Assembly: GCA_947628135.1 (NCBI GenBank)
Contig: CANQYT010000003.1
Span: 3,387 to 67,386 of the forward strand
DNA length: 64,000 nt
Source: an uncultured Clostridia bacterium
GTDB lineage: Bacteria; Bacillota; Clostridia; Christensenellales; CAG-314
Direction: 5' to 3'
In this document: piece after piece, positions 10,979-52,941 of the stretch
How the letters are laid out: each line of letters starts with the position of its first letter
How positions within the stretch are numbered: position 1 is the stretch's first letter
Position numbers and translations under genes: made by a program
The notes under the pieces: model-generated
Database searches by the model: none
Seen by the model: the letters and a program-made list of their open reading frames with translations, nothing else
What the model was told of the DNA's origin: nothing

Positions 10979-11100
10979 ACTGCTCGCCTTCAAATTTTGA
11001 TAATTATAGTAATTTCACGTACTACTTAACAAAATAATTAGTACGCAATCTCATTTGAAGATTACGCTCTACTAAGACGTCTCTGATTTTATTTTCAATC
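10979..11100 (-). repeat. right arm of the imperfect inverted repeat
   Basis: The reverse complement reads 'gtgaaattactataattatcaaaatttgaaggcgagcag', matching the left arm apart from a few mismatches and indels. Confidence 0.8.
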
Positions 11101-11114
11101 AGCGAAGAAATAGA

Positions 11115-11326
11115 GAGTACGTTTTGGAACGTGTACTTGCATTTACAAACTAACTCGTAATAGTTCCTCGCGGGAAGTTGCTCAAAGCATATTCAATACT
11201 AAACTTTATTTTAAGTTTTATTCTCGGCAAAAACTTTTACCTTGTAAAAAACTCTTTTCAAAGAGAACAGTAGCACCCCGGAAAACAAAAAATTGACTTC
11301 TATTAGCACAGACTTTGAAAAAAAAG
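11115..11326 (-). repeat. repeat-family copy L (inverted relative to 14956-15170)
   Basis: It aligns along its full length to the reverse complement of 14956-15170. Roughly four of five positions are identical by eye. Confidence 0.85.
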
Positions 11327-11694
11327 CAGCAAATAAAGACTTGTTTAAGATTCGTTGACTTTATTGTTTTGTACCGTTCAATTGCTCTTTATGCAGTCTC
11401 ATTGCTTGGATATGCTTTGTACACCACAACGGGCAAAACACACATAACAAGGGATATCAAAGCGCCAAACCTCCGAATATTTTGCGCGAGCAATGCGGTT
11501 ATGCTCAATCGCTATCTGTAAACTGGCGACATATTTGTTTTGAAACTTCCAAAAGCCATATTGCACTATTCCTTTTGACAATTTCAAACGTGATTGTTTT
11601 GCAAACAGTGTGACAAAATGATGTTTCAATGTCAACCCTGCTACACCACCCTTTGATACCGTCAAATTTTATGTAAAAATTATTCGCAAAATAT

Positions 11695-11723
11695 TTGCTT
11701 TACGAATAGATTAGCGTTATAAT
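11695..11723 (+). promoter_or_regulatory. candidate sigma-A promoter ~200 nt upstream of the recombinase gene
   Basis: TTGCTT, 17-nt spacer, TATAAT. Confidence 0.4.
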
Positions 11724-11923
11724 ATAGTTGACAACAAACAAAATATATAAAATTAGACGAAAATACGGGCGAAAAGGCAGAATTTCAATCAATTTCTCAC
11801 CTGCAAACCGCATTTCAAACAGAAAATTTTTTGCGACGTAGAAAAAACGGGCATTCGCGTTTCGTTGAATCCCCTGTTACACCGCCGCTCGCCGTCAGAA
11901 CATATAAAAAGGAGAACAACACC

Positions 11924-12991: not shown

Positions 12992-12993
12992 AT

Positions 12994-26183: not shown

Positions 26184-28565
26184 TCACTGTTCGCGCAGTG
26201 TAACGCCGTATTTCTCTTTGAGGGAACGCAGCGCTCTGCCGCACTGCTTTTCTATGTCGGAGTCCTGCAAGGTCTTGTTTTTGTCGCGAAGCACCACCGT
26301 TACGGCGAGACTTTTCTTGTTTGCGCCGAGTTTTTCTCCGCGGTACACGTCAAACAACCGCGCGCTTTCCACAGAGGGCAGTGCGAGAAATTCGTTCAAA
26401 ACGTCCTGCGCCGCGATATCCTCATCGCACAGCAACGCGAAATCTCTGCTGACGGAGGGATATTTTGCTATCGGTTGATATTTTATCTCATTCCGCGCCA
26501 ACTCAAACAGTTTGTCCAAATTCAATTCGGCGTACATACATTCCGCAGCGATGTCGAAATTTTCGGCGATCTGCGGGTGCAATTTTCCGAAATGACCGAT
26601 TTCCTGCCCGTCTACAAATACGTCCGCGCTCACACCGGGGTGAAGCAACTCGCATTGAGAGCGGACGAGGCGAATTTCGCCGTCCGTGACGGAACGCACC
26701 GCTTGCAAAATATCCTCGCGGAACGCGTCAAAGCCGCGCTCGGTGGCGCACACCGAAAGACGTTTTTGCTCAACGGGCAACTCCGTAAGGGGCAACTGTT
26801 TCGCCAGATACGCTTTGCCCACTTCGAACAATCTCAACTCGGCATTGTTGCGCGCGAGATTCATCGCCGCGCATTGAAGCATATTCGGCGCAAGCGATAT
26901 GTTCATAAGGGACAGTTCTTCGCCTATCGGATTCAACAATCTGATATATTTCGTTTCGTCCACGGGCGAAAGGCTTGCCTTGTCGAACAGCGCTTTGCCC
27001 GCAAAGGGGTAAAACACACATTCGTTGTAACGCAGACCGCGCATAACTTCTTTCAGCGCGTCGATACGCTTGCTTTCCGCCGTTTTGCCTCCGCAAGTTA
27101 TCCGCGCCTTGTCCATAAGCGTCCCCGAAATGTTGTCGTAGCCGTAGACGCGTATCAGTTCCTCAACTACGTCGCAGTCGCGCGAAACGTCGTCGCGATA
27201 GGGAGGAATGACGCAATTTACGAGGTTGCCCTCAATTGAGGTTTCGATGTTGAGCAGGCGCAATATGGAAAGAATACGTTCGTCGGGTATCTTTATGCCC
27301 AACAATTTGGCTATGCGGCGTTTGTCAAAAGAAACCGAGCGGCTTTGCGCCACCTCTCCGACAGAGATACGACCGCGCGTAATTTTGCCGCAGCCGAGCG
27401 CTTGCACAAGGTGCAGCGCGCGGGACAAACCGAGATCATTCGTGTAGGTCTCTATACCCTTTTCGAAACGCGCCGACGAATCGGAACGCAACCCGAGACG
27501 GTGTCCCGTACGGCGTACGTTCATACGCGCAAACGTAGCGGATTCGAACAAAACGCAATTGGTGTCCCATTTGATTTCGGAATTTTCTCCGCCCATAATT
27601 CCCGCAAGACCCACCGCGCGCTCTTTGTCGGCAATTACAAGATCGTCGTTGCAAAGTGCGTACTCTTTGCCGTCCAGCAAAACGATTTTCTCCCCGTCAA
27701 ATGCTCTGCGCACCGCTATTTGTCCGCCGTTTATATCTTTGCGGTCGAACGCGTGCATAGGCTGTCCTATTTCAAACAACACGTAGTTGGTGATGTCTAC
27801 GATGTTGTTGATTCCGTGCAAGCCCACTTTCGCAAGCCGCGACGTAAGCCAAACGGGAGATTTGCCGATAACCACGTCCGTTACGCCTTGCATAAAGTAG
27901 CCCTTGCAGATATCCGTTGCTTCAACGCTTACGGACACGAGGTCGGACGTGCAAACGCTCTCTTCCGTGTAGTCGGTTTGCGGTTCGCGGCAGGTTTTTC
28001 CGAGGGCGACGGCAACTTCGCGGGCAAGTCCCAGCACGCTGTTGCAATCCTGCCTGTTGGCGGTGACGCTTACGTCCAGCACGTAGTCGTCGATACCCAC
28101 TTCGCCGCGTATATCCGCTCCAACGACTGCGTTTTCGCTGAGGACAAGCACTCCGTCGCGTTCGGCGTTGGGATACATATCGCCGTTTATGCCCAATTCT
28201 TCCGCTCCGCAAAACATTCCCCACGATTCTTCGCCGCGCATTTTGTCCTTTGTGATGTGCAAGCCGTTGGCAAGGTTTGCGCCGTGCAAAGCGACGGGCA
28301 CTTTGTCGCCGACCTTTACGTGGTGATCGTTGGTAACTATGGGAATGATTTCGCCGCCGACGTCTACTTTGCAGCAAAGCAATCTTTCCGCGTTGGGGTG
28401 CTGAACGATTTGCTCGATTCTGCACACTTTTACGTTGGTAACGTGTTCGCCGAGATAGGTAACGCTCTCGATTTCCAAACCGATATTTACCATTTTGTCG
28501 CACAACGTCTGCACGTCTACGTCAACGTCCACGAAATCTTTTATCCAAGAAAGAGGTATTTTCAT
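26184..28565 (-). CDS. pheT: phenylalanine--tRNA ligase beta subunit
   Basis: 793 aa starting MKIPLSWIKDFVDV, with tRNA-binding, B3/4, B5 and C-terminal FDX-ACB regions. Confidence 0.96.
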   Translation of the reverse strand: MKIPLSWIKDFVDVDVDVQTLCDKMVNIGLEIESVTYLGEHVTNVKVCRIEQIVQHPNAERLLCCKVDVGGEIIPIVTNDHHVKVGDKVPVALHGANLANGLHITKDKMRGEESWGMFCGAEELGINGDMYPNAERDGVLVLSENAVVGADIRGEVGIDDYVLDVSVTANRQDCNSVLGLAREVAVALGKTCREPQTDYTEESVCTSDLVSVSVEATDICKGYFMQGVTDVVIGKSPVWLTSRLAKVGLHGINNIVDITNYVLFEIGQPMHAFDRKDINGGQIAVRRAFDGEKIVLLDGKEYALCNDDLVIADKERAVGLAGIMGGENSEIKWDTNCVLFESATFARMNVRRTGHRLGLRSDSSARFEKGIETYTNDLGLSRALHLVQALGCGKITRGRISVGEVAQSRSVSFDKRRIAKLLGIKIPDERILSILRLLNIETSIEGNLVNCVIPPYRDDVSRDCDVVEELIRVYGYDNISGTLMDKARITCGGKTAESKRIDALKEVMRGLRYNECVFYPFAGKALFDKASLSPVDETKYIRLLNPIGEELSLMNISLAPNMLQCAAMNLARNNAELRLFEVGKAYLAKQLPLTELPVEQKRLSVCATERGFDAFREDILQAVRSVTDGEIRLVRSQCELLHPGVSADVFVDGQEIGHFGKLHPQIAENFDIAAECMYAELNLDKLFELARNEIKYQPIAKYPSVSRDFALLCDEDIAAQDVLNEFLALPSVESARLFDVYRGEKLGANKKSLAVTVVLRDKNKTLQDSDIEKQCGRALRSLKEKYGVTLREQ

Positions 28566-28577
28566 CTTTGCGCTCTC

Positions 28578-29597
28578 CTATTTTCCGAATTGTTTGAGAA
28601 AACGCTGGTCGTTTTCAAAAAACAGTCTGATGTCGGGTATTCCGTACTTGATCATAGCCACGCGGTCCATACCGATACCGAAAGCGTATCCGCTGTATTT
28701 GCCGCTGTCGATACCGCAGTTTTCCAACACGTTGGGGTGCACCATTCCCGCGCCGAGCAGTTCTATCCAGCCCGTACCCTTGCAGAGGGAACAGCCTTTT
28801 CCGCCGCAGTTACTGCAAGTTACGTCCACCTCTACACTCGGTTCGGTAAAGGGGAAGAACGAGGGACGGAAACGCACCTTCGTTTGCGGTCCGAAAAGAT
28901 TTTCGGCGATGTAACTCAACGTCCCTTTCAAGTCGCACAGCGTGATGTTTTTGTCCACAGCCAAGCCCTCTATCTGATGAAACACGGGCGAGTGAGAAGC
29001 GTCGTTGTCCGAGCGAAACACCTTGCCGGGGCAAACGATCTTCAACGGGGGTTTGCGGCGTTCCATCACTCTCGCCTGCATTGCCGAAGTCTGCGTGCGC
29101 AGCAAAATGTTTTCCGTCACGTAGAAAGTGTCCTGCATATCCCGCGCGGGGTGATCTTCGGGAATGTTCAGCGCGCGGAAATTGTAGTAGTCCGTTTCTA
29201 TTTCAGGACCGCTCAGCACTTCGAAGCCCATCGCTTCCATCAGGTCGCATATCTGCTTTTCCACAAGGGTAACGGGGTGCAGCGCGCCGCGCGACGGGCA
29301 GGACGTGAGACTTATATCCACGCGCTCCCTTTGCAAACTCAGGCGCATTTCTTCCGCCTTGCTTTCCTCGGCTAACGCGGCAAACCTGTCTTCCAGATAT
29401 TTGCGCAGTTCGTTCACCTTTGCGCCGAACGCGGGGCGTTCTTCGGGCGGCAGGTCCTTGATTTTTTTCAACAAATCAGTAACCTCTCCCGACTTGCCGA
29501 GGTATTTTGCTCTCATTTGCTGCAATTCCGCTCCGCCGAGACTGCTCTTCGACGCAAGATCGAATTTCAGTTTGATCGCTTCAATCAAATCTTCCAT
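28578..29597 (-). CDS. pheS: phenylalanine--tRNA ligase alpha subunit
   Basis: 339 aa with class II aaRS motifs (FRxE-like PGKVFRSD, GAGMVHPNV). Confidence 0.96.
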   Translation of the reverse strand: MEDLIEAIKLKFDLASKSSLGGAELQQMRAKYLGKSGEVTDLLKKIKDLPPEERPAFGAKVNELRKYLEDRFAALAEESKAEEMRLSLQRERVDISLTSCPSRGALHPVTLVEKQICDLMEAMGFEVLSGPEIETDYYNFRALNIPEDHPARDMQDTFYVTENILLRTQTSAMQARVMERRKPPLKIVCPGKVFRSDNDASHSPVFHQIEGLAVDKNITLCDLKGTLSYIAENLFGPQTKVRFRPSFFPFTEPSVEVDVTCSNCGGKGCSLCKGTGWIELLGAGMVHPNVLENCGIDSGKYSGYAFGIGMDRVAMIKYGIPDIRLFFENDQRFLKQFGK

Positions 29598-29853
29598 ATT
29601 TATCTCCTAAAAAAAGCCCCAAGCGAAATGCTTAGGGCGATAAAATTTGTCGCGGTACCACCTAATTCAAGAGACAGAGTCTCTCCTTTGATGTTTGCTA
29701 ACGGAAACAACCCGCAAGCGGCTACTTTGCTTTCACCGTTTGAACTCGGAAGGGAATATCTTTTTGCGCGCATACGGGGCTTGCACCATCCCCCGTTCGC
29801 TGAAAATGCGTTGATCGCAAACTCTTGTGCTTCGTCAACGTTTGTATTTAGTA
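29598..29853 (-). promoter_or_regulatory. T-box leader (Phe, specifier UUC) controlling pheST
   Basis: The minus strand carries the T-box 'gaattaggtggtaccgcgac' (29649-29668). A terminator cccuaagc/gcuugggg plus U7 follows. A candidate specifier 'gagUUCaaa' is at 29742-29744. Confidence 0.88.
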
Positions 29854-34761: not shown

Positions 34762-35268
34762 ATTTCTCCTATTTCTTGGCAATTTCGCCGTTTTTGTTTT
34801 CCAAATCGAACGCCGACGGAAAAAGCGTCTCCTTTTCGTCGCTGTTGCTTCCGAATTTTCTTTCCTTTGGATATTTCATACAGTCATTGTTGACAACAAA
34901 AGGAACGTTTATTCACGACGCGGGGCAATGGAAAACACGCCGTTGCAAAAACCTTTCAGTTTCATTACAGCCTGTAAACTGAGTTGGAAAAACAGCCCAA
35001 TCACGTAGCATATCGGTAAACGTCCCGAACTATGTAATAAATTTTAATTTCATCGCCTCGTGCATTTTGATTGGTGTTGAGATTTTTATTATGGTGAATT
35101 TATTTGAGAATTGTCGATGTATTTCAATGTGTGACTTCTTTTATCGGGAAAAGATATCGCTGTCACGCTGCTCATTTTTTGTCCAATTTCTTTTGATTAA
35201 ACAATAGTGATTTCATTATCTTGAAAGAAATTTTTCGGTTTTCGAAAGCAAATAAATTGCCTTTTTGG

Positions 35269-35289
35269 ATACTATGTGTGTAATAGTAT
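35269..35289. promoter_or_regulatory. palindromic motif site S4 (ATACTAT-gtgtgta-ATAGTAT)
   Basis: Perfect 7-bp arms with a 7-nt spacer, in the ORF-free region upstream of the spoVA operon. Confidence 0.5.
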
Positions 35290-35439
35290 TTTATAAATTG
35301 CCGAAAAACGGTATAGTTTAACTGAAAATAAGCGCAAATTCTTATAGAAAAAAAGTAGGATTTCTTTAATCAGACTATACAATATAAGAATGTTTTTATT
35401 GACCACAATTTTATTGTATCAAAATATTTATAATATAAC

Positions 35440-35815
35440 TCAATGGAGAAAACGTTCACAATGCAAAACCCTTGATTGTGATTTGAACACAAAGTTATAT
35501 TCAAAATTATTTATATGATTTTTAACCAGAGGTTAACTGCGATGCAAAATCGTTAATTGCAGGTTACCAAAAATTTTGCGCAATCACTTCATTATGCTTT
35601 TAATGAAATATCGTCATTTCACAAATATATAAAATTTCTTTAATTAGAGATTACACACAAAGAAAACTAGTTTAATTATGCCTTGAACGATATTTTACGT
35701 ATTATAAAATTCGTTTAACCAAAGATTCTATGCAATGTAAAATCGTTATTTCAGATTACCCACAATGCGACGTGAAAGTGTTTGATTATGCTTTGACGAA
35801 AATCATCGTAGTATA
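35440..35815 (+). repeat. degenerate tandem modules (~95-190 bp period)
   Basis: The recurrent pattern is 'atgcaa..aaaatcgtta.tt.cag.ttacc...attatgcttt.a.g.aa.atc.tc'. Modules start near 35521 and 35712, with partial copies at 35446 and 35641. Confidence 0.65.
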
Positions 35816-35861
35816 AATAATTTATTTTTTGCTACAAGCAAAATTATTTTATCTGTCGATA

Positions 35862-35892
35862 ACAAAATAAAAACCCGCCGAATATCGGCAGG
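35862..35892 (-). terminator. intrinsic terminator of glgA
   Basis: The minus strand reads ccugccg auauu cggcggg followed by UUUUUAUUUU. Confidence 0.8.
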
Positions 35893-35915
35893 TCGAATAA
35901 AACTTTTTACGTAAT

Positions 35916-37337
35916 TCACTCCATCGCCTCGTCGTACAATTTGTCGTACTTTTCGGCGGAGACTTTCCAAGTGAAGTCGGTGCGCATCGCTTTGCTTACA
36001 AGCGCTTTCCATCGAGTTCGATCGCGGTACACCTCCATTGCCTGACGCAGTACGTACAGCATATCGTGCGCGTTGTAGTCGGCAAAAGTAAATCCGTTGC
36101 CGCCGTTGCCGTAGGGGGTGATGCTGTCTTTAAGTCCGCCCGTTTCCCGCACTATCGCCACCGTGCCGTAGCGGGAAGCAATCATTTGCGAAAGTCCGCA
36201 AGGCTCGCTGCGCGACGGCATAAGAAACATATCCGCCCCGGAGTAAATTTGCCGCGACAAAGCCGAATTGAATGCAATCACCGCCGCTACTTGCTGAGGG
36301 TGACGCAACGCCAATTCCGTAAAGAAATGTTCGTAGTAACCGTCGCCCGTTCCGAGGATAACAAACTGCACGTCGTCCTGCAACGCCTCGTCGATAACAG
36401 CCGTCACCAGATCCAACCCTTTGTGCGCCACCAAGCGCGAGATCATCGCGACAACGGGCGTGTTCGGGCGGACGGGAAGATTGAACATACGTTGCAACTG
36501 TTCCTTGCACACCGCCTTGTTTTGCGGCTTTTTCGCGTCGTATTTGGCGTAAAGAGCGTTGTCAGTCGCAGGGTCGTAGTAGTCGGGATCTATGCCGTTC
36601 AGTATTCCGCGCAATTTGGATTCGTTTCGACGTATAATAGAATCCAACCCGTGCGAAAAATAGGGAGTTTTTATCTCCTCGGCGTAACTTGGCGACACGG
36701 TGGAAAGACGGTCGCAGCACTCTATCGCGCCCTTCATCAGATTTATACAGCCGTTGTATTCCACCAAGCCCTGATAGTAAGCGTCAATTCCGAAAAGCCA
36801 TTGCAGATTGTCCAACGAATATTTTCCCTGATATTCTATGTTGTGAATGGTAAACACCGTGCGAACGTTGCAAAAACGCGAATCTCTGCAATAAATCGTT
36901 TTCAGATAAATTGCGGCAAGCGCGGCTTGCCAATCGTGACAATGTATTACGTCGGGCGTAAAATCTACAAGGGGCAGAATTTCCAACGCGCTCCGACAGA
37001 AGAAAGCGAACCTTTCCCCGTCGTCGAAATGTCCGTAACACCCTTTGCGCTTGAAATAGTACTCGTTGTCCGTAAAGTAGAACGTTACGCCGTCTTTTTC
37101 GTAGCAAAAAACGCCGCAGTATTGATTTCTCCACGCAACGGGAACGTTCACACTGCCGATAAACCGAAATTTTTCGCGCCACTTTCCCTCTATATCCGAG
37201 TACAGCGGCAGCACCACACGCACGTCGCAGCCGCGTTCCGCCAACGCTTTGGACAGCGAGCCGACAACTTCCGCCAAACCGCCCGTTGCTACAAAGGGCG
37301 CGGCTTCCGAAGCTACAAACAATATCTTTTTCATCAT
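35916..37337 (-). CDS. glgA: glycogen synthase GlgA
   Basis: The ATG at 37337 (MMKKILFVASEAAPFVATGGLAEVVG) follows aaaGGTGAG. The ORF track start at 37391 is an upstream extension. Confidence 0.94.
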   Translation of the reverse strand: MMKKILFVASEAAPFVATGGLAEVVGSLSKALAERGCDVRVVLPLYSDIEGKWREKFRFIGSVNVPVAWRNQYCGVFCYEKDGVTFYFTDNEYYFKRKGCYGHFDDGERFAFFCRSALEILPLVDFTPDVIHCHDWQAALAAIYLKTIYCRDSRFCNVRTVFTIHNIEYQGKYSLDNLQWLFGIDAYYQGLVEYNGCINLMKGAIECCDRLSTVSPSYAEEIKTPYFSHGLDSIIRRNESKLRGILNGIDPDYYDPATDNALYAKYDAKKPQNKAVCKEQLQRMFNLPVRPNTPVVAMISRLVAHKGLDLVTAVIDEALQDDVQFVILGTGDGYYEHFFTELALRHPQQVAAVIAFNSALSRQIYSGADMFLMPSRSEPCGLSQMIASRYGTVAIVRETGGLKDSITPYGNGGNGFTFADYNAHDMLYVLRQAMEVYRDRTRWKALVSKAMRTDFTWKVSAEKYDKLYDEAME

Positions 37338-37347
37338 CTCACCTTTA

Positions 37348-38460
37348 TCAAAGCATTTTTCCCTTGGAAACGAAGTAGGGAAGTTCCTCACAGCCGCAAA
37401 GTTGTCTGCCGTCGCGTATCACGGCGTTTTTGTCCGTTATGACGCAATCGAGTTTGACAAGCGCACCTATCACCGTGTCCTGCATAAGCACGGAATTGCG
37501 CACCACGCTGCCTCTGCCCACTTTTACCCCGCGGAACAATATGCTGTTTTCCACCGTACCCTCGATTATGCACCCGTCGGAAATGAGCGAATTTTTCACC
37601 ACCGCGCCCTCGATGTACTTGGACGGGGCGGAGTCGCGCACCTTTGTGTAGATGTCACGTGCGCCGAACAGTTCGTCGCGGACATTCTTGTCCAGCATTT
37701 CCATATTTGCTTTGAAATACGCCGCAAGAGACGCCATTCCCGCATAATAGCCGTCGAATCTGTATCCGAAAATACGCATCGTATCCACGTTTTTTGACAG
37801 AATGTCCCTGCCGAAACTTGAAAAACCACTTTGTACCGCGTTTTGAATGATGTTCAGCAGATATTCGCGATGGACCACCATTACGTTTATGTAAAGTTTT
37901 TCCTTGCCCGCACCCAATTTCGGATTTATCTTGACTGCGGTCACGCGAGAGTCGCCGTCCGTTTCCACCGTCATATAGTAGCGAGAGGGCGTGCAGTGAC
38001 ACTCGTGGTACACCAATGTGATGTCCGCTTGCGATTCCTCGTGGAAGCGCACAATGTCCGACACGTCCAGCCGCGCCACCGTTTCGCCGTCGCACAGCAC
38101 GACATACTCTTCGTTTCTGTGCCGCAAAAAATCGGTAATTCCTTTCAACGCCTCCAACCTGTTGGTATAGGGAGCGTCCGTTTCGTTGCTGTACGGCGGA
38201 AGCAAAATGATACCGCCGTCCTTGCGCGCCAGATCCCAATCCTTACCGCTGCCCAAGTGGTCGATAAGCGATTGATAATTGTTTTTCGTCACAATTCCCA
38301 CCGCCGTTATGCCTGCGTTTACAAGGTTGGACAGCGCAAAGTCTATCAAACGGTAACGTCCCGCAAAAGGTACGGACGCGATGGCTCTGCGCGCGGATAG
38401 TTCGGGAATATTTTTGTCTTGAATATTTGAAAAGATAACGCCTACTGCCGAGTTTGCCAT
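37348..38460 (-). CDS. glgD: glucose-1-phosphate adenylyltransferase regulatory subunit GlgD
   Basis: 370 aa. It resembles GlgC but lacks the GGxGxRL motif (VGVIFSN...RAIASVPFAGRYRLIDF). Confidence 0.9.
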   Translation of the reverse strand: MANSAVGVIFSNIQDKNIPELSARRAIASVPFAGRYRLIDFALSNLVNAGITAVGIVTKNNYQSLIDHLGSGKDWDLARKDGGIILLPPYSNETDAPYTNRLEALKGITDFLRHRNEEYVVLCDGETVARLDVSDIVRFHEESQADITLVYHECHCTPSRYYMTVETDGDSRVTAVKINPKLGAGKEKLYINVMVVHREYLLNIIQNAVQSGFSSFGRDILSKNVDTMRIFGYRFDGYYAGMASLAAYFKANMEMLDKNVRDELFGARDIYTKVRDSAPSKYIEGAVVKNSLISDGCIIEGTVENSILFRGVKVGRGSVVRNSVLMQDTVIGALVKLDCVITDKNAVIRDGRQLCGCEELPYFVSKGKML

Positions 38461-40445: not shown

Positions 40446-41238
40446 ATTCGTCTCCTATCACCGCCTCGATACCGTCGCTGTCGGGGCGTTTTTCAATGAT
40501 TATTTCTTCAAACAGACCGTTTTGGACAACGCGTATGATTTGCAATTTCATCAATTCCAACACAGCCAAAAAGGTCGTAACTATCTCGTTTTTATCGGCG
40601 TCGGCGTCAAACAGTTCGCTCATCTTGAAGCGGTCTTCCACCAGCAGGATTTCGCGGATATAGGCAATTTTCTGCGGCACTGAAAAACTTTCCCTCACGA
40701 TGGCGCGGGATACGTTTTCGGCGGCGTTTTTCACCTGCATTCGCATCAAAAATTTGCCGAACGCTTCGATAAAACCTTCTATACTTAGGTTTTCTTTGAC
40801 AACCGTCACTTCCTTGCCGACGGTTTTGTCCGGTTCGCGGTAGAAACGGTCCACGTTTTCCTGCTCTTTGAGTTCGGGAATAACTTCCTTTATCAGGCGG
40901 TATTCCTCCAACTGCCGTATAAGCATTTTTTCGGGAGTTTCATCGTTGGAATCGGTTTCTATCAGTATCGGCAACAGCGCGCGGGATTTTATTTCCAGCA
41001 ACATCGCCGCCATAGCCATATATTCGCTTGCCTGCTCCACGTCCAACTCCGACACTTGGTTCATAAACTGCAAAAATTGCTCGGTGACCTGCGAAACGAA
41101 GATATCCTTTATCTCTATCTTATTTTCTTTCACCAGCGCCAAAAGTAGATCCAACGGTCCGTCGAAATTGCTCAGTTTGAGTTCCAACACCGATTTTTGC
41201 TCGTCGAATATGTACTGTTGTTGCAATTCCTCAGACAC
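40429..41238 (-). CDS. scpA: segregation and condensation protein A
   Basis: 269 aa with FDGPLDLLLALVKENKIEIKDI. It overlaps the scpB start. Confidence 0.92.
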   Translation of the reverse strand: MSEELQQQYIFDEQKSVLELKLSNFDGPLDLLLALVKENKIEIKDIFVSQVTEQFLQFMNQVSELDVEQASEYMAMAAMLLEIKSRALLPILIETDSNDETPEKMLIRQLEEYRLIKEVIPELKEQENVDRFYREPDKTVGKEVTVVKENLSIEGFIEAFGKFLMRMQVKNAAENVSRAIVRESFSVPQKIAYIREILLVEDRFKMSELFDADADKNEIVTTFLAVLELMKLQIIRVVQNGLFEEIIIEKRPDSDGIEAVIGDEYESFE

Positions 41239-41953
41239 GGAAAATCAACCTCCAAAAACTTTCAAAGCCGTAACATATACGACCGCCGACCCAGCCGATG
41301 TACAAATTGAACGGAGAGTAAACTCTTACGATCGGAATGTAATCGAGTACGATCAGCCCCAGCATAATGTACAGACTGTACTTACGCATAAATCTCATAA
41401 ACCCGTTCCGTTCGTCGACAAAACAACTCAACAAACGGTAGCCGTCCAGCGGAAACAGCGGCAGAATGTTGAACAGCGCAAAGTTTACGTTCAGTTGCAT
41501 CGTCAACGCGCACAATTCGTAGCAAAAGAATACGAAATAGTACATCGACGACCCCGCCGTCTGTTGAAAGTACAAATTGTAAAACAGCGTCGAGCCCATC
41601 GCAAACAGAAACGCCAACAGCAAATTCGTAACGACGCCCGCAACGGACACAGTTATGCAGCCGAGTTTGCGCTTTTTGAAGTTGTTCGGATTTATCGGGA
41701 CGGGTTTTGCCCAACCGAAGCCCACCAACACCATCATCACAAGTCCGACAATGTCGAAATGTTTCAGCGGGTTGAGACTCAGCCTGCCGTATACTTTGGC
41801 GGTGCTGTCGCCGTTCCACAACGCCACAAGACCGTGAGCGATTTCGTGCAGGATAAGCGCCGTAAACAAAGCGGGTATAAAGGCGACCACGGTAAGCAAG
41901 CCCTCGCGGGTCACGCCTCGTCCGCCGTTTGTGAGCAAGCGGTAAATCAGCAT
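41231..41953 (-). CDS. site-2 protease (M50) family membrane metalloprotease
   Basis: 240 aa with HEIAHGL, a second-site NILPLFPLDG motif and multiple TM helices. Confidence 0.85.
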   Translation of the reverse strand: MLIYRLLTNGGRGVTREGLLTVVAFIPALFTALILHEIAHGLVALWNGDSTAKVYGRLSLNPLKHFDIVGLVMMVLVGFGWAKPVPINPNNFKKRKLGCITVSVAGVVTNLLLAFLFAMGSTLFYNLYFQQTAGSSMYYFVFFCYELCALTMQLNVNFALFNILPLFPLDGYRLLSCFVDERNGFMRFMRKYSLYIMLGLIVLDYIPIVRVYSPFNLYIGWVGGRICYGFESFWRLIFRV

Positions 41954-42044
41954 AAAATTATTTTAACAAAATATTTCAGTAATGTCAATATAATATGTTA
42001 TATTTATGTAATTTATCCGACGGTGCATTTGACTGTGGGACGTC

Positions 42045-42075
42045 AAAAGGCGGCGACCCTGTTGAGGTCGCCGCC
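42045..42075 (-). terminator. intrinsic terminator after the carboxypeptidase gene
   Basis: 10-bp GC stem ggcggcgacc/ggtcgccgcc followed by UUUU on the minus strand. Confidence 0.6.
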
Positions 42076-42091
42076 CGTAAAATGCGGACGT

Positions 42092-43225
42092 TCAGCCGAC
42101 GATGTCTTTGACGTAGTCCCAATAAGTTTTGGCGGCGACGTCCGTCTTTGCCACAAGTTGCACTTCGCCCACCACTTTGCCGTCGCGAATAAGTTGAGCG
42201 CTGCCCAATGCGTCCCCCGCTTTTACAGGCGCTTTGACGTACTCGGGGAGAGTAACGGACAGTTCGCACTCCGTTTCGCCCTTTTTGCCGAACAAAGCAA
42301 GTTTGCCGTTTGCACGTACTTCCACCGTGTCGTTTCTTCCGCCCGACACCGTTACGCCGTCAATAGGAGAATTTTCGTCCAGAAACACCTTGCTCTCGAA
42401 GTTTGCGAAAGCGTAATTGAACATTTCGCTCACCTCTCTGAAACGCGTTTTACTGTCCGGCGCGCCTACCACCACGGCTATCACACGCGTGCCGTTGCGT
42501 TTGGCTGTTGCCGCAAGGCAATGCATTGCCTCCGATGTGTATCCCGTTTTTCCGCCATCGCACCCGTCGTAGAAGCGTATCAGTTTGTTGGTGTTGGTCA
42601 TACCCGTCACACGTCCTGACGGGTGAACGAAATCTTCCGTCCACACCTTTGCACACTCAAAGTAATGAGGATGCCGAATAAGTTTCGACAGCATCACGCC
42701 CACGTCGCGGGCGCAGGAAAACTGACTTACCGCGGGCAGACCCGTGCAGTTTTCGAAATGAGTAGCGACAAGCCCCAATTCTTTCGCTTTGTCGTTCATT
42801 TTGTCCACGAACCCCTCAACGCTACCGCTTACGTGTTCAGCGACGGCAACGCAACTGTCGTTTGCGGAACACACCACGATGGATTTTATCAGATCGTTGA
42901 GTTTATAGGTCGCGTTTGCGTCCAGAAACACCTGCGAACCGCCCATAGAAGCCGCGCGTGCGCTTGCCACCACGTCGTCCGACAAGGAAATTTTTCCGTT
43001 GTCGATTGCGTCGTAGGTACAAAGCAAAGTCATAATTTTCGTCATACTCGCAATGGGACGTTTTTCCGTTGCGTTATGCTCGAACAAAACTTGTCCGTCC
43101 TCCGACATCAGCACCGCCTCTTTGGCGGAAATTTGCAATCCCGATTGTTCGGCGCAAGCCGCCACCGGCACAGTCGCCGCTATCAGAAGAAATGCGGCAA
43201 ATACAAACAAAAAGATTTTTTTCAT
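42092..43225 (-). CDS. D-alanyl-D-alanine carboxypeptidase (S11, DacB/DacF-like)
   Basis: 377 aa with a signal peptide, the active-site SMTK, then SAND and KTGYT motifs. Confidence 0.92.
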   Translation of the reverse strand: MKKIFLFVFAAFLLIAATVPVAACAEQSGLQISAKEAVLMSEDGQVLFEHNATEKRPIASMTKIMTLLCTYDAIDNGKISLSDDVVASARAASMGGSQVFLDANATYKLNDLIKSIVVCSANDSCVAVAEHVSGSVEGFVDKMNDKAKELGLVATHFENCTGLPAVSQFSCARDVGVMLSKLIRHPHYFECAKVWTEDFVHPSGRVTGMTNTNKLIRFYDGCDGGKTGYTSEAMHCLAATAKRNGTRVIAVVVGAPDSKTRFREVSEMFNYAFANFESKVFLDENSPIDGVTVSGGRNDTVEVRANGKLALFGKKGETECELSVTLPEYVKAPVKAGDALGSAQLIRDGKVVGEVQLVAKTDVAAKTYWDYVKDIVG

Positions 43226-43319: not shown

Positions 43320-43472
43320 CGTAAGTGAAATTTATCTTATTTGCGAGAACAAGTTTTCAGTCCAAAAAAATAAACGCCGAATCACACTCACACTAAACGG
43401 AATGAGCCCGGTACAATACCGAACTCATTCACAAACAACTTAGTAATTTTAATGTCTAACTTTTGGGGTTCA
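43320..43472 (+). mobile_element. relic 3' end of an IS3-family element (transposase C-terminus plus terminal repeat)
   Basis: The frame ending at 43443 reads ...NKRRITLTLNGMSPVQYRTHSQTT*. This resembles the conserved YNxxRIxxxLxGxSPxxYR tail of IS3 OrfB. The sequence ends ...ggggttCA at 43472 (reverse complement TGAACCCC...), like an IS3 terminal inverted repeat. No intact ORF remains. Confidence 0.5.
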
Positions 43473-43507
43473 TAGCAAAATCGCAGAGGCGTTTTCTTGT
43501 AAAAAAG

Positions 43508-44656
43508 TTATCTTGTAATTTTTTCCCAAACGGATTTCGGTCCGCCGCCGATACCGAGTTGGTCGCGTATCGTGTCGCAAATAACGTCGAAACCTTTGAT
43601 AGTGCCGAGATTGGTGGGAACAACGTCGCACCCGTAGATAAGCAGCGGCGTATATTCGCGAGTATGGTCGGTGTGCGCCTTGTGAGTGGGGTCGCAGCCG
43701 TGGTCGCCCGTGATGTACACCACGTCGTCGTGCCGCATAGTTGCGATAAGTTCCGCGACCTTGCCGTCTATCTCCTCCAACGCTTCCGCGTAACCGAACA
43801 CGTCCCGTCTGTGACCGTACTTCATATCCGTGTCCACAAGGTTTACGAACACAAGTCCGTCGAAACGTTCCTTGGCGATCTGTATCGTCTGATTCAGTCC
43901 GTCGAGGTTGCTGACGGTGTGCGTACTGCGCGTGATACCCTGACCGTTGAAAATGTACTCTATCTTGCCGACGGCTACGCTTTCCATACCTGCGTCCTTG
44001 ACGTAGTCGAGAATAGTCTTTGCGGGCGGATTGAGCGAGAAGTCCTTTCTGTCCGCGGTGCGCGTAAAGGGATATGCTCCCGTAAAGGGACGGGCTATCA
44101 CTCTGCCGACGGCATATTTGCCGCTGCAAAGTTTGCGCGCTTTCTCGCACATATCGTAAAGTTGCTCTATCGTGTATCTGTCGGTGTGCGTTGCGATTTG
44201 CAAAACGCTGTCTGCGGAGGTGTAAACTATCGGGTAGCCCGTTTTGAGATGTTCTTCTCCGTAGTCCTTGATAACTTCCGTGCCGCTGTACGGTTTGTTG
44301 CAAAGTATCTTCGTGCCCAATTCTTTTTCCAATCGAGCGATGAAACTTTGCGGGAAGCCGTTGGGGAATGTGGGCATAGGTTCGTTGGTGATTACTCCCG
44401 CCATCTCCCAATGTCCTACGGTCGTGTCCTTACCCTTGGACAGTTCTTCCAACCGTCCGTATGCGCCTATGGGCTGTCTGTCGTCGTTGTAAGTTCCGTC
44501 TATGTTGTACAATCCCAAATCGGACAGTACGGGCAGATTGAGGTCGTATGCGGCGCGCACGTTTTTGAGAGTGTTCGCACCGAAATCGTTGAATTTTTTG
44601 CAATCGGGCATTGCTCCGATACCGAATCCGTCAATAACGAGAATAAATGCTCTCAT
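43508..44656 (-). CDS. deoB: phosphopentomutase DeoB
   Basis: 382 aa starting MRAFILVIDGFGIG, with TGDHGCDP and a metal-binding core. Confidence 0.94.
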   Translation of the reverse strand: MRAFILVIDGFGIGAMPDCKKFNDFGANTLKNVRAAYDLNLPVLSDLGLYNIDGTYNDDRQPIGAYGRLEELSKGKDTTVGHWEMAGVITNEPMPTFPNGFPQSFIARLEKELGTKILCNKPYSGTEVIKDYGEEHLKTGYPIVYTSADSVLQIATHTDRYTIEQLYDMCEKARKLCSGKYAVGRVIARPFTGAYPFTRTADRKDFSLNPPAKTILDYVKDAGMESVAVGKIEYIFNGQGITRSTHTVSNLDGLNQTIQIAKERFDGLVFVNLVDTDMKYGHRRDVFGYAEALEEIDGKVAELIATMRHDDVVYITGDHGCDPTHKAHTDHTREYTPLLIYGCDVVPTNLGTIKGFDVICDTIRDQLGIGGGPKSVWEKITR

Positions 44657-44706
44657 AGTTTTTCTCCTTGTATATCAAGTATAACAAAAAAAAATTTTTT
44701 AAGCAA

Positions 44707-45282
44707 TCAAATGACGGCAGTTAGTAGCCGCAATATGACGAAAAAAGCGATTATTTTGACTGCAAATGCAACTGCAAGCAGGGCAAACGAGAGTTTTGTA
44801 TCGCAAATTGCCTCCCTGAACGTGCGTCGGCAGCAAACAGTACCGCAAGCGGTTATACAGGCAAGCAGCAGCCCCGCCACTTCCGCTACGGAAACGAGCA
44901 AAGCGAAAAGTATCCCCCACACCGATATGCACACGATGACAGCCGCGGCGGTAGCACCGCAATAGAAACAGGCGACGAACAGCGCAAGACAACTCAGATA
45001 CTTGATTTGCGGCAGAGTCTGACAAAACGCTATGCACACATAGTAAACCGACGTCCACAGCAGAAAAGAGAAAAACAGTCCTAACCCGCCCTCAAACAGC
45101 CGATAAGCGTAGTTGCATCTGTTTTCGTACCACCAACTGTATTCGAAAACGTTTACAAGAATAACGCCGAGAACAACTCCCGCCACCGCCACCGCCGTGC
45201 AAACCAACGACAGCCACTTGTGATCGCACACCGTTTGCCACAGGTCCTCCGCGGCGAAACGCACCTTCCGAAACAGTCTCAT
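44707..45282 (-). CDS. polytopic membrane protein, possibly SpoIIM-like
   Basis: 191 aa with about 5 TM helices. The first helix, ...GVVLGVILVN, resembles the SpoIIM N-terminus. The gene sits between spoIVB and deoB. The family assignment is tentative. Confidence 0.45.
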   Translation of the reverse strand: MRLFRKVRFAAEDLWQTVCDHKWLSLVCTAVAVAGVVLGVILVNVFEYSWWYENRCNYAYRLFEGGLGLFFSFLLWTSVYYVCIAFCQTLPQIKYLSCLALFVACFYCGATAAAVIVCISVWGILFALLVSVAEVAGLLLACITACGTVCCRRTFREAICDTKLSFALLAVAFAVKIIAFFVILRLLTAVI

Positions 45283-48879: not shown

Positions 48880-48908
48880 ATTATACACCATTGCTAAAAG
48901 TTTTTCAA
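48880..48908 (-). promoter_or_regulatory. sigma-A promoter of argR-recN
   Basis: The minus strand reads TTGAAA, 17-nt spacer, TGtTATAAT (extended -10). The -35 overlaps the dxs stop. Confidence 0.6.
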
Positions 48909-50710
48909 CCCTTTGAAAGCATTTCGGAAACGGCGGCGTCGATACCCTCCTCGTCCAAGCCGAATTGAGTAAGTTGTTCGGATACGGAGGCGTGCTTGAC
49001 AAACGCGTCGTCAACGCCGAGACAGCGTATACGCGCATTGGTTGCCGACAGGTATGCCGTCACACTTTGCCCGAAGCCGCCCGAAAGTACGTTTTCTTCC
49101 AAAGTAAGCAGGGCAGCGCCGTTGCTGGCGATCTCGTCCAACAAAGCGTGATCGAGCGGTTTCACGGTGGTCACTTCCACCGCTGCAACGCCGTCGTTAC
49201 GCGCGGCGACCGCTTCGGCAAAGCGGGAAAGCCTCGCCCCCACCGCGAGAATATACAACTTCGGCTCGGCGCAGGTTTTCAGCACGTTCCATCTGCCGTC
49301 GAAACCGCGTTCGTCGTGCGAGAGTAATTTGGAATATCGTATTGCGACGGGCGATTCCGTCCTGTACGCTTTTTCTATCATCATTGACAACTGTTTGTAG
49401 GTTGCGGGCGTCCATACGGCAACGTTGGGAATTTGCGAAAGGTAGGACAGGTCAAACAGACCCTGATGCGTTTTTCCGTCCTCGCCGACAAACCCCGCTC
49501 TGTCCAGCAGAAAGGTCACGGGCAGATTTTGCAACGCCACGTCGTGCAGTATCTGATCGTAACTGCGCTGCAAAAAGGAGGAATAGATCGCAACAAACGG
49601 GTGTAAGCCGCCTTTCGCCATTCCCGCGGCGAAAGTGACGGCGTGTTCTTCGGCTATCCCCACATCGAAAAAGCGATCGGGAAACTGTTTTTGAAAAGTT
49701 GACAACCCCGTTGCTTTTGCCATAGCGGCGCACACGGCTACAACGTTTTCGTGCGATTCCGCCAACGTGCAAAGCGTATCGCCCGCCACCGCGGAACTTT
49801 CCAACACGTCCGACGGCGCGTCTGCGGGAAGCACGGAATGGTAACTTTCCGGGTCGTCCTCGGCAGGTTTGTAACCTTTGCCCTTTTTTGTCACTATCTG
49901 CATAACCGTAGGCTTCTTTACGTTGTTTTTTATCTTGGTAAAGTAGTACACCAGGTCTTTGATTTCGTTGCCGTCGATTATGCCTATGTATTTGAGGTCG
50001 AAATTGTCGAAGTACCCGTTGCGAACGTAGCCGAGTTTGGCGCGGCGTTTGCACCACCGCAAAAATTTATAAGTAGGTTTGCCCAAAAGAGGAATTTTGA
50101 GCAGAAACTTTTTGAGACGTTCCTTGTTGCGGTCGTATTTTCCGACGCGCAGTTTGGACATATTGAGCGTTGCCGAACCGACGTTTTTGCCGATGGACAT
50201 ATTGTTGTCGTTGAGCACAACGAGCAATTCGGTATTCTTGACGTTGTTCAGCGCCTCGTAAGTCATTCCGCACGTCATCGACCCGTCGCCCACAACGGCG
50301 ATCACCTTGTAATCGTCGCCCAAGGCGTCGCGCGCGTGAGCCAAGCCCAACGCCGCGGAAATAGCCGTTCCCGCGTGTCCCGTATTGAAGCAATCGCGTT
50401 CGTCCTCTTCGCAATCGGGAAAACCGCTTACGCCCCCTTTGCGGCGCAACGAAGAAAAATTCTCACCCCGCGAGGTAAGAATTTTGTGAACGTAACTCTG
50501 ATGCCCGACGTCCCACACTATCTTGTCGCGCTCGTCGAAAACGTAATGCAATGCGACGGTAAGTTCCACAACTCCGAGATTGCTCGCCAAATGTCCGCCG
50601 TTTCTGCCGACGTCGGCAATCAATTTCTCCCGAATTTCCGCACAAAGCTGCGGAAGTTGTTTTACGTCGAGTTTTTTTAGGTCTGCAATCGATTTTATCT
50701 GTTCCAGCAC
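48905..50710 (-). CDS. dxs: 1-deoxy-D-xylulose-5-phosphate synthase
   Basis: 601 aa with GGHLASNLG, the TPP-binding motif GDGSMTCGMTYEALNN and a transketolase C-domain. Confidence 0.95.
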   Translation of the reverse strand: MLEQIKSIADLKKLDVKQLPQLCAEIREKLIADVGRNGGHLASNLGVVELTVALHYVFDERDKIVWDVGHQSYVHKILTSRGENFSSLRRKGGVSGFPDCEEDERDCFNTGHAGTAISAALGLAHARDALGDDYKVIAVVGDGSMTCGMTYEALNNVKNTELLVVLNDNNMSIGKNVGSATLNMSKLRVGKYDRNKERLKKFLLKIPLLGKPTYKFLRWCKRRAKLGYVRNGYFDNFDLKYIGIIDGNEIKDLVYYFTKIKNNVKKPTVMQIVTKKGKGYKPAEDDPESYHSVLPADAPSDVLESSAVAGDTLCTLAESHENVVAVCAAMAKATGLSTFQKQFPDRFFDVGIAEEHAVTFAAGMAKGGLHPFVAIYSSFLQRSYDQILHDVALQNLPVTFLLDRAGFVGEDGKTHQGLFDLSYLSQIPNVAVWTPATYKQLSMMIEKAYRTESPVAIRYSKLLSHDERGFDGRWNVLKTCAEPKLYILAVGARLSRFAEAVAARNDGVAAVEVTTVKPLDHALLDEIASNGAALLTLEENVLSGGFGQSVTAYLSATNARIRCLGVDDAFVKHASVSEQLTQFGLDEEGIDAAVSEMLSKG

Positions 50711-50711
50711 G

Positions 50712-51374
50712 TTATCCTTCTTTGCGGAAAATACTCAGCACTTTTGCAACGCCGAGGATAATACCGTTGGCATTTTTTACGGCGAGATTTTTTCCTATCG
50801 CCTTGAAAGTGATGGTAAGGGTGGAAATTACCGAATAGATAACCACCTTTATCACAACGTTCCACACCGTGCCGAGGTCGAGTCCGCTTATCGCTTCTAC
50901 GGCAAGCGCCGCTCCGCAAACGCCGGAAACGATACCGCAAATGTCGCCCACTATGTCGCAGCAAATCGAAGAAACGATATCCCTCTTCATCGCAAGACGG
51001 ACGGCTGTTTTTCCTCCGCGCACGCGTCTGCTCGCCATAGAGTGGAACGGTCCTACGTCGCAAGCCGTCGCGGCAGTTCCGATAACGTCGAACACCACGC
51101 CCAGCAGCAGTATCACCACCGTAAGAATTGTCGCCAGCCACCACTGCGAATCGGTAAGCACCAATTCCGAACCGGTGTTTACCGCCGCCGCCAACAGCAA
51201 AGTGATAAAAAACGCTTTCACCGGCCAAAGGTTGCGCTTTTTCTTCTTTTTTTCCGACTTGTCTTTGTCCTTTTTCTTTGCAGCCGCTTCCGCAGACGTT
51301 TCTTCGGACATTGCGCCGTCGCATAAAACCGTTTCGTCGTCGCTACTTCGCGGCACGGTATCAGTATTTTTCAT
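50712..51374 (-). CDS. oapA: OLE-associated membrane protein OapA
   Basis: 220 aa with a K/E-rich N-terminal tail and about 4 TM helices containing buried Asp (FDVIGTA, CCDIVGDICG). It lies immediately between the OLE-like RNA and dxs, the diagnostic position of oapA. Confidence 0.7.
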   Translation of the reverse strand: MKNTDTVPRSSDDETVLCDGAMSEETSAEAAAKKKDKDKSEKKKKKRNLWPVKAFFITLLLAAAVNTGSELVLTDSQWWLATILTVVILLLGVVFDVIGTAATACDVGPFHSMASRRVRGGKTAVRLAMKRDIVSSICCDIVGDICGIVSGVCGAALAVEAISGLDLGTVWNVVIKVVIYSVISTLTITFKAIGKNLAVKNANGIILGVAKVLSIFRKEG

Positions 51375-51434
51375 ATCTCTCCGTAATATATTTTTAGCAG
51401 AAAATGTTTGATAGGTTTTCTGCTCGAAGTAACA

Positions 51435-52052
51435 AAAAAAGGTGGTGACTCGTCGGATAAACCTTACGGCATAGGTTCAGTAGGGTTTCCCAAGCAAAAA
51501 CTTCCCGTCGCCGAAGAAGCAGTTTCCTCTTAGTTTCGCCTGTGCGGCATCACTGCTCGCACAACTGAATCGCCACTTAGTCCGTACTATAATCTCCGAC
51601 AAGCCTGAATTGCAGTCTAGAAGATTTCCTTTGCAGATGCCGACGTATTTTAGTTTCTTTTGCAGAATTCATTTCGTAAAGCATTCGAGCGCGCGCCGTA
51701 GGCCAACGGATACGCGTCGTTCAGTACTCCCAAAATTCCACTCAAAACAAGCTACACTGTACACAGCTTCGTATTCACCGCATAGCAGGTTTAACCTCAG
51801 AGAGTAATTGCTTATCTATTAGGCAACCACCCCGTAGAGTCTCCGCGACTGATGGGGATAGAGCGTATGCCGTTACGCCTTACCCACCAATCTTAACTTC
51901 CAGCACCAGCCCCCGTTTGGGCAACGAAAGCAAGCACAAGAAACTTCATCGTTGTGCCCGTCGACGGTCTTTTAGGCCCGCCTTCAATACGTCGATTTCT
52001 GACTAGAATACTGCACCACCGATTTTATTTAGTTGTATCGGGTTCTCACCCG
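51435..52052 (-). ncRNA. ole: OLE (ornate, large, extremophilic) RNA
   Basis: ~620-nt ORF-free, GC-richer, helix-dense segment between ispA and oapA, with its own promoter. The 5' GGUGGUG (52014-52020) pairs with 3' CACCACC (51442-51448), which is followed by a U-run. GNRA and UUCG-type hairpins are present. The synteny nusB-folD-xseAB-ispA-[RNA]-oapA-dxs matches the described OLE locus. Confidence 0.75.
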
Positions 52053-52058
52053 TATTTT

Positions 52059-52087
52059 ATTGTAGCACAAATTTTGCAAAAATGCAA
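52059..52087 (-). promoter_or_regulatory. promoter of the OLE-like RNA
   Basis: The minus strand reads TTGCAT, 17-nt spacer, TGcTACAAT. Confidence 0.55.
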
Positions 52088-52131
52088 ACGGTTTAGTATA
52101 TGCGCGATTTTTAACGACCGTTCGTAAAGGA

Positions 52132-52941
52132 TTACTTCTTCCGAGCGGCGTTGCGGTCGCAAAATTCCTTGATGTAATTCAAGTCGTAAGGCAGCGAATC
52201 GCATATCGCCTTGACCTCGCCGTTGAGCGTTTCGACGTGTTCCAGCAAGTCGCTTTCGGTGTAGACGTCGAGGAAAGACCTTTCGCACTTTTGCGAGTCG
52301 AGAATATCGTCGATTATCTGATAGCACACTCCGAGTTTGCACGCTATCTCGTCGAAAAGAGCGATTTCTTCCTCCGTCGCGCCACCTACTGTCGCGCCGC
52401 ACACCAAAGCCGCGCGGATAAGCGTGCCCGTTTTCGCAACGGCAAGTTCGGTGGCGTCCTCAACGTTTTCCGTCGCGGAAAACAGATCCAACGACTGTCC
52501 GTGTACCAAACCGCGTATTCCGCTCATTTCAAACAGAAACGCGCACGCGTTGCGGTACGCCTTGTTGGACATCGGTCCGCGAAGCGCCGTTTCGAAGGAC
52601 AGGTTGAGCAATGCGTCGCCCGCAAGCACCGCGGAAGCCTCGCCGAATTGCATATGGCAGGAACGCTTTCCCCTACGCATATCGTCGTTATCCATACAAG
52701 GCAGATCGTCGTGAATGAGCGAATAGGTATGCACAAACTCCAACGCCGCCGCCAAGGTCCTCGCGCCCTCGGAAATATGTTTGCCCACCGCCTTTGCCGT
52801 GTTCAGCAACAGCATAGGACGGAAACGCTTTCCGCCGCTGAACAAACTGTACTCCATTGCTTGCAGTACCTTGTCGTGACTTTTCGGCAAAAATTCTTTA
52901 AGTATGCCGTCGATGTACTCCGTCGTGATTTCAGTTTTCAT
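52132..52941 (-). CDS. ispA: farnesyl diphosphate synthase (polyprenyl synthetase)
   Basis: 269 aa with the first DDxxD motif in LIHDDLPCMDNDDMRRG and the second in IIDDILD. Confidence 0.93.
   Translation of the reverse strand: MKTEITTEYIDGILKEFLPKSHDKVLQAMEYSLFSGGKRFRPMLLLNTAKAVGKHISEGARTLAAALEFVHTYSLIHDDLPCMDNDDMRRGKRSCHMQFGEASAVLAGDALLNLSFETALRGPMSNKAYRNACAFLFEMSGIRGLVHGQSLDLFSATENVEDATELAVAKTGTLIRAALVCGATVGGATEEEIALFDEIACKLGVCYQIIDDILDSQKCERSFLDVYTESDLLEHVETLNGEVKAICDSLPYDLNYIKEFCDRNAARKK

Follow-up and report, generated by a model that had tools for sequence, protein, structure and literature searches.

What is encoded in the long, apparently empty spacer between ispA, the farnesyl diphosphate synthase gene, and an unnamed membrane-protein gene in an uncultured Clostridia bacterium? 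The locus lies on the minus strand of a 64,000-nucleotide stretch of contig CANQYT010000003.1 (positions 3,387 to 67,386; this whole stretch is referred to below as the window, and all coordinates are those of the window). An initial annotation, made by reading the letters, had proposed that the spacer specifies OLE RNA and that the 220-residue protein encoded downstream of it is the OLE partner protein OapA. From the ispA stop codon (52134-52132) to the ATG of the downstream gene (51374), the spacer measures 757 nucleotides (nt; 51375-52131), rather than the approximately 690 nt first given. It was also said to contain no open reading frame (ORF), which holds for ORFs of at least 50 amino acids (aa) on the minus strand; the only ORFs present are two short ones on the plus strand, of 65 and 57 aa.

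OLE RNAs occur in Bacillota, typically in anaerobic or extremophilic species, and to our knowledge they are, as a whole class, among the largest conserved bacterial RNAs without a known biochemical function. We scanned the entire window with the covariance models of Rfam 15 at the gathering threshold and obtained 2 matches. One of these is OLE (RF01071), at 52035..51426 on the minus strand, with a score of 438.2 bits compared to a gathering score of 50, i.e., nearly nine times as high (E 2.4e-125). The match is not truncated, spanning positions 1-616 of the 616 in the model with only three small deletions, and yields an RNA of 610 nt. The covariance-model check is thus positive for the interval and strand that had been predicted, and at full length. 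We are highly confident that the spacer between ispA and oapA encodes an ordinary full-length OLE RNA, with oapA as the gene for its partner protein. The class itself is known and has already been surveyed across GTDB, with 2,822 matches (PMC11332333); the assignment brings no novelty and adds one more ordinary member. The OLE region had also been described as GC-richer than other spacers. With 47.9% GC, it indeed exceeds its own two short flanks (31-38%) and the spacer at 35.0-35.9 kb (25-30%), but it does no more than match the mean of the window, 48.3%.

An OLE RNA is recognised by an ornate structure with about 20 to 25 helices that are supported by covariation, P1 included. We therefore aligned the RNA from the window with 74 RNAs located upstream of OapA homologues (alignment A2; 75 RNAs in total) and evaluated the Rfam consensus structure extended by a 6-bp P1, together comprising 20 helices and 160 pairs. 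Standard base pairs occupy 90.0% of the 11,785 cells, compared to 39.5-47.7% when the 3' partner is slid by 1-3 columns. Compensatory change, on both sides of the pair, is found in 122 of the 160 pairs, and none of 500 shuffles reaches any of the observed measures. At the level of single nucleotides, 141 of the 610 positions (23%) are invariant among the 75 homologues, and 186 (30%) are at least 97% conserved; the published description of OLE is an RNA of about 600 nt with about 25% of its nucleotides more than 97% conserved (PMC12265935). Covariation and conservation, together with the Rfam match, identify 51426..52035 as an OLE RNA gene of the full-length type.

The helix that closes the structure, P1, pairs GGUGGU (52015..52020) with ACCACC (51446-51441), and its 3' strand is followed directly by a run of seven uridines (U7, 51440-51434), a likely 3' end or processing site. 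The initial annotation had already noted a long-range GGUGGUG (52020-52014)/CACCACC (51447-51441) closing pair followed by a U-run. This pairing is real, since P1 is 98.9% paired among the 75 RNAs and five of its six pairs covary (e.g., UA in 37, CG in 28, and UG in 8), and it corresponds to the P1 stem that forms part of the published OLE model (PMC3413148). The U-run after P1 is also present in the Rfam consensus and in close relatives, with CACCACC-U7 kept downstream. By contrast, a second helix picked out by eye, GGGCA..ACGA with UCGUUGCCC, has to be abandoned. Its 3' half lies within a covarying hairpin (helix 3), so that the real pairing is UUUCGUU/AACGGGG around a GCCCA loop that is invariant in the alignment, while the upstream GGGC/GAGC variation is not compensated in the loop.

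The elements that would be contacted by partner proteins can be located as well. GNRA-type loops had been remarked upon and are present, as GUGA at 51553-51550 and as GCGA in the next hairpin. The former caps the P13 hairpin, GUGCG-A-GCA GUGA UGCCGCAC (51542..51562, minus strand), which has a bulged A at 51557 and whose pairs covary (helices 17 and 18). Binding of OapB requires a GNRA loop together with a 1-nt bulge (PMC7936274), making P13 the putative OapB site. Further upstream, the J4a/5 strand CGAUGAAG (51944..51951) and the J5/6 strand GUUAAG (51897-51892), both on the minus strand and both matching the Rfam consensus letters, are the two halves of an alternative kink-turn (k-turn) and a predicted site for OapC/YbxF, since the k-turn for OapC can form by refolding of J4a/5 and J5/6 (PMC9723947). 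A different arrangement is seen in OLE RNAs from Oscillospiraceae (A2 columns 146-180; e.g., loci L083, L051, and L044), which have an extra covarying hairpin in J5/6 at the place of GUUAAG in the window, read ACUGUGAA instead of CGAUGAAG in J4a/5, and carry further insertions in the P7 and P8 loops. Given the altered J4a/5 strand and the J5/6 insertion, the k-turn (OapC) region therefore differs in Oscillospiraceae.

An OapA protein is expected to bind OLE RNA in a 2:1 ratio and to be needed for localisation of the RNA at the membrane. The gene downstream of the OLE element (50712..51374, minus strand) has a Shine-Dalgarno sequence, GGAGAG, upstream of its ATG and encodes a protein of 220 residues with hydrophobic segments at about 50-72, 78-100, 132-163, and 167-190, in agreement with the helices of an AlphaFold2 model. 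A DxxxD motif, D140-IVG-D144, is located in the third segment (encoded by 50957-50943), and both aspartates are invariant in 40 homologues. The sole Pfam match is to CNNM/DUF21 (PF01595) and is sub-threshold, with 19.6 bits for a gathering score of 28.4 (E 8e-4), and none of the NCBIfam models matches the protein. A sequence search of the PDB yielded neither an OapA nor a CNNM chain, only a spurious coat protein (E 0.095), so the link to CNNM proteins rests on the weak Pfam match and on the fold search. In the latter, the first 4 ranks of Foldseek against the PDB are all MtCorB (7m1t and 7m1u; probability 0.97-1.0, TM-score 0.37-0.46, E 0.02-0.3), with nothing credible below them. The AlphaFold2 model has moderate confidence (mean predicted local distance difference test score 70.5), and its first approximately 48 residues are disordered. 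The predicted model of Halalkalibacterium halodurans OapA also has an archaeal CNNM protein, MtCorB 7M1U, as its best structural match (PMC11332333).

According to the published description, OapA is encoded directly downstream of ole, has four transmembrane (TM) helices, contains a DxxxD motif that is absent from CNNM domains, and is weakly related to CNNM proteins (PMC11332333). All of these features are found in the 220-residue protein, and its homologues are linked to OLE (see below). By these features, the four-TM protein is OapA, as had been proposed. We also considered a CNNM transporter of the MpfA/CorB type. The CNNM score is below threshold, the CBS and CorC domains are absent, and the protein ends at residue 220; without these domains, the protein is therefore not an MpfA/CorB transporter. 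The N-terminus shows a peculiarity of its own. In the alignment of 40 homologues (A1), residues 1-48 (51231-51374) start with the invariant clade peptide MKN(T/S)D(S/P)VP(R/L). Behind this peptide come a variable, acidic linker of low complexity and, just before TM1, a poly-Lys tract (KKKDKDKSEKKKKKRN); for more distant OapA homologues, the alignment begins only at about residue 40. It is plausible that the Lys tract is an element that contacts RNA or the membrane.

We next asked how tightly OapA and OLE are linked across genomes. The 220-residue protein has 593 detectable homologues, and alignment A1, scanned against one genome per prokaryotic species, gave 585 relatives, of which the best 80 loci were fetched. 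The identical protein is present on seven independent metagenome contigs with the same gene order. A search with nhmmer, using the OLE from the window, detected an OLE-like sequence directly upstream, with the same orientation as the gene, in 78 of the 80 loci, and the count rises to 79 when an Rfam match at one further locus (L059) is added; for eight sampled loci, Rfam confirms OLE with 382-452 bits. This reproduces the near-obligate OLE-OapA linkage that has been published (PMC11332333). The locus that nhmmer missed, L059 (4510-4990; uncultured Clostridiales RUG727), has a shortened OLE of 481 nt (228 bits) upstream of the OapA homologue and presumably represents one of the reduced "variant" OLE RNAs of gut lineages. 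The sole exception among the 80 is L065 (5001-5609), from a metagenome-assembled genome (MAG) of an uncultured low-GC Bacilli bacterium (CANQIS010000020.1). It encodes an OapA-like protein of 200 aa with 32% identity, and a relaxed Rfam search of the 8.4-kb locus (E<=1) detects nothing at all, the upstream gene ending 19 nt before the start. Either this protein is an OapA paralogue that does not need a neighbouring ole, or that genome has its ole elsewhere.

How, then, might the RNA be made? A promoter had been predicted for ole, and its sequence, of the sigma-A type, is present at 52059..52087 (minus strand) both by consensus scan and by direct reading, with the -35 element TTGCAT (52087-52082), a 17-nt spacer, and an extended -10 element, TGcTACAAT (52067-52059). 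The motif is conserved: of 23 close relatives, 21 have TTGCAw-17-(TG)nTAnAAT, always equally far from OLE and in flanks that have otherwise diverged. The promoter is presumably active, with a predicted transcription start at about 52053-52051; for OLE of B. halodurans, an active promoter of this proximal kind has been established (PMC3413148). The predicted mature RNA would extend from ~52052 to ~51434, roughly 620 nt. At its predicted 5' end, upstream of the start of the Rfam model, is the stem-loop CGGGU-GAGA-ACCCG (52039..52052, minus strand; RNAfold -8.2 kcal/mol), corresponding to the 5' GGGU-GAGA-ACCC hairpin of the initial annotation. Among the 23 relatives, 16 have a hairpin of differing sequence that begins 2-10 nt past the -10 box, showing that structure rather than sequence is conserved at this position. 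This additional 5' hairpin seems to be a feature of the clade and may stabilise the 5' end of the RNA.

Towards the 3' side, some relatives have as little as 12-20 nt between OLE and the Shine-Dalgarno sequence of oapA. This leaves no room for a separate promoter, and oapA must therefore be transcribed through OLE. A terminator scan of the minus strand did not call P1 plus U-run and found no canonical terminator between OLE and oapA. The GTG start codon of dxs (48905..50710, minus strand; TIGR00204, 603.9 bits) comes 1 nt after the oapA stop codon, and dxs likely belongs to one transcription unit with ole and oapA.

This arrangement raises the question of whether the region acts chiefly in cis, as a leader or attenuator of the oapA-dxs mRNA in which formation of P1 next to the U-run decides on read-through, and not primarily as a free-standing RNA. 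The U7 stretch would fit such a device, as it adjoins the 3' end of P1 and leaves just 59 nt to the oapA ATG, and so would the fact that in relatives with a very short spacer the expression of oapA has to pass through the element. However, with a span of about 570 nt, the closing helix does not resemble an intrinsic terminator, in line with the negative terminator scan, and OLE in B. halodurans is a very abundant, exceptionally stable, and discrete RNA (PMC3413148). Moreover, a 30% share of highly conserved nucleotides and about 20 helices far exceed what an attenuator needs. We regard this explanation as improbable; a role in attenuation could add to the identification as a full-length OLE RNA but would not replace it. 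Given that the host belongs to uncultured gut Clostridia, a lineage represented by metagenomes only, and that the related locus L059 has a shortened OLE, the RNA could also be a reduced variant (variant 1 or 2; Fernando and Breaker 2024) of the kind that gut lineages with reduced genomes typically have, without the OapB site or P7-P8. Full-length RNAs are distinguished from variants by P7, P8, and P9 of normal length and by a P13 with a GNRA tetraloop and a single-nucleotide bulge (PMC11332333). In the window, all 616 model positions are matched with three small deletions in the 610-nt RNA, there are no large deletions in P7-P9 and their helices are present, and P13 has its GUGA loop and bulge. 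We have rejected variant-1 and variant-2 OLE on these grounds and consider such an assignment very improbable.

Several points nevertheless weigh against the identification of an ordinary, working OLE-OapA system. When the Rfam consensus structure is mapped onto the window RNA (153 pairs), 16 pairs are non-canonical, mostly in the variable distal stems of P7-P9, which are also the least well paired across the family (helices 11 and 12). A Pfam search of ten small ORFs, confined to the 64-kb window, identified no OapB (KOW), OapC (L7Ae), bS21, or MpfA. In addition, the promoter, the RNA ends, and the stability of the RNA in this organism are predictions, and the physiological role is extrapolated from a single, distantly related model organism. 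The non-canonical pairs are at the same time all that could be cited in favour of a decaying, non-functional remnant or a chance resemblance. Such an origin is hard to reconcile with the E-value of 2.4e-125 or with the comparison to the nearest MAGs, in which the OLE RNA is 91-93% identical and OapA only 77-79%, a difference that argues for purifying selection on the RNA. With oapA being intact, with its invariant motifs, and with the identical locus present on 7 independent metagenome contigs, we consider the probability of a remnant to be close to negligible.

An ordinary full-length OLE with its OapA partner suggests the following working of the locus, which for the physiological part leans on the model species. 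Our data establish which families the two partners belong to, how their genes are linked, and that fold and promoter motif are conserved; transcription, RNA ends and stability, membrane anchoring, and the stress role are deduced from published work on other species. Transcription would start at the sigma-A-type promoter just downstream of ispA, giving a transcript that opens with the short stem-loop, runs into the ~610-nt, P1-closed OLE and the U-run, and then would read on into oapA and probably dxs. The OLE part would fold into the conserved multi-domain structure and accumulate as a stable RNA, and OapA, with its four helices, CNNM-like relation, and DxxxD motif, would bind it and hold it at the cell membrane. 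By homology with H. halodurans, the OLE-OapA particle may aid the tolerance of excess Mg2+, short-chain alcohols, cold, and poor carbon sources, the conditions under which the H. halodurans particle confers tolerance (PMC11332333, PMC12265935, PMC3413148).

Only two points are mildly new, i.e., the clade-specific 5' hairpin and the possibility that P1 and the U-run set the ratio of OLE to oapA-dxs. These could be joined in a speculative proposal, for which we would claim only a small chance of being correct: the ole transcript of this clade may carry two regulatory add-ons beyond the OLE model, with the 5' stem-loop acting against 5'-end-dependent decay, and P1 plus U-run acting as a partial terminator or processing signal that depends on folding, so that closure of the fold would set the ratio of free OLE to oapA-dxs mRNA. 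If true, closure of a 570-nt fold would couple assembly of the ribonucleoprotein to the first step of isoprenoid synthesis.

The genomic context had been described as the canonical ispA-OLE-oapA-dxs neighbourhood, with the order asp23-nusB-folD-xseA-xseB-ispA-ole-oapA-dxs-argR-recN. This order is borne out by Pfam and NCBIfam, as are its isoprenoid, DNA-repair, and folate genes, and by an identical contig. On the minus strand, these databases identify SpoIIIAH, Asp23, FolD, XseA, XseB, an IspA of the farnesyl diphosphate synthase type, Dxs, ArgR, RecN, and a SpoIVB peptidase, and nusB is confirmed via precomputed Pfam matches on the identical contig. The upstream neighbour, ispA (52132..52941, minus strand), has a Pfam polyprenyl_synt score of 150 bits and an NCBIfam FPPsyn score of 215.8, below the cut-off of 275. 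The spoIIIA operon and spoIVB are nearby. Among related genomes, the nearest are rabbit-gut MAGs of uncultured Clostridia, followed at greater distance by gut MAGs of Christensenellaceae, Candidatus Fimimonas, and Oscillospiraceae. The organism itself is a spore-forming Clostridia bacterium of the gut that has not been cultured.

Some other parts of the window deserve mention. The second Rfam match is a T-box leader (RF00230) at 29630-29847 (minus strand), whose 95.8 bits narrowly exceed the gathering score of 93. It is located directly upstream of pheS and pheT (28578-29597 and 26184-28565, minus strand; Pfam tRNA-synt_2d and B3_4/B5/FDX-ACB, respectively) and is an ordinary Phe-tRNA-sensing leader. 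No tRNA was found anywhere in the window. The region 8305-14241 contains a HTH_3/CI-like repressor (8305-8853), a phage-type integrase (11831-12991), and a 415-aa ORF (12994-14241), and is probably an integrated mobile element or prophage remnant; several small ORFs within it have no Pfam match, and the ORF-poor stretches 9308-10107 and 10694-11398 have no Rfam match at E<=0.1. Another 0.9 kb without an ORF of at least 50 aa (35009-35915; 25-30% GC) lies upstream of a glycogen/starch synthase gene (35916-37391, minus strand). It has no credible Rfam match, the best being anti-hemB with 19.7 bits (E 0.085), and is probably an AT-rich regulatory or promoter region. On the plus strand, a 583-aa ORF (40868-42619) has no Pfam match at E<=0.001 and is either a real gene or a shadow ORF, and the neighbouring 500-aa ORF (43463-44965) appears to be the shadow of a minus-strand gene of a metalloenzyme family, as seen on the identical contig (L001).

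For annotation, the value of these results is that a 757-nt "empty" spacer and an unnamed 220-residue protein can be labelled ole and oapA in a metagenomic lineage. In addition, the comparative set of 75 OLE/OapA pairs from gut Clostridia, with its conserved promoter, clade-specific 5' hairpin, and covarying P1, could be of use for studies of OLE expression in non-model anaerobes.

Compared with the full-length OLE of H. halodurans (RF01071), the RNA in the window is alike in its size of about 610 nt and in having all consensus helices and conserved nucleotides, including P1, the P13 GNRA loop with its bulge, and the k-turn strands that flank P5. Alike, too, are the proximal promoter of its own (predicted here), the oapA gene immediately downstream, and the neighbourhood of isoprenoid, DNA-repair, and folate genes. 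Unlike the H. halodurans RNA, that of this clade has a short stem-loop and an A-rich linker between the predicted start and P1, and unlike the full OLE model, the window RNA lacks a small optional hairpin at model positions 424-435. The hosts differ as well, H. halodurans being an alkaliphilic Bacillus and the present organism an uncultured anaerobic gut Clostridia bacterium. The protein resembles OapA of the BH2780 family in being encoded directly downstream of ole, in its length of about 200 aa, in its four TM helices with DxxxD in TM3, and in combining a weak CNNM/DUF21 similarity with the absence of CBS and CorC domains and with MtCorB as the nearest solved fold. What sets OapA of this clade apart from other OapA proteins is the invariant N-terminal MKNTDSVPR, the acidic linker, and the poly-Lys tract before TM1. 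With the CNNM Mg2+ transporters MpfA, CorB, and CorC, it shares a related transmembrane fold (weak PF01595; Foldseek 7m1t and 7m1u), but it remains below the Pfam gathering threshold, lacks the cytosolic CBS pair and CorC_HlyC, and, unlike CNNM domains, has the DxxxD motif (PMC11332333) characteristic of OapA.

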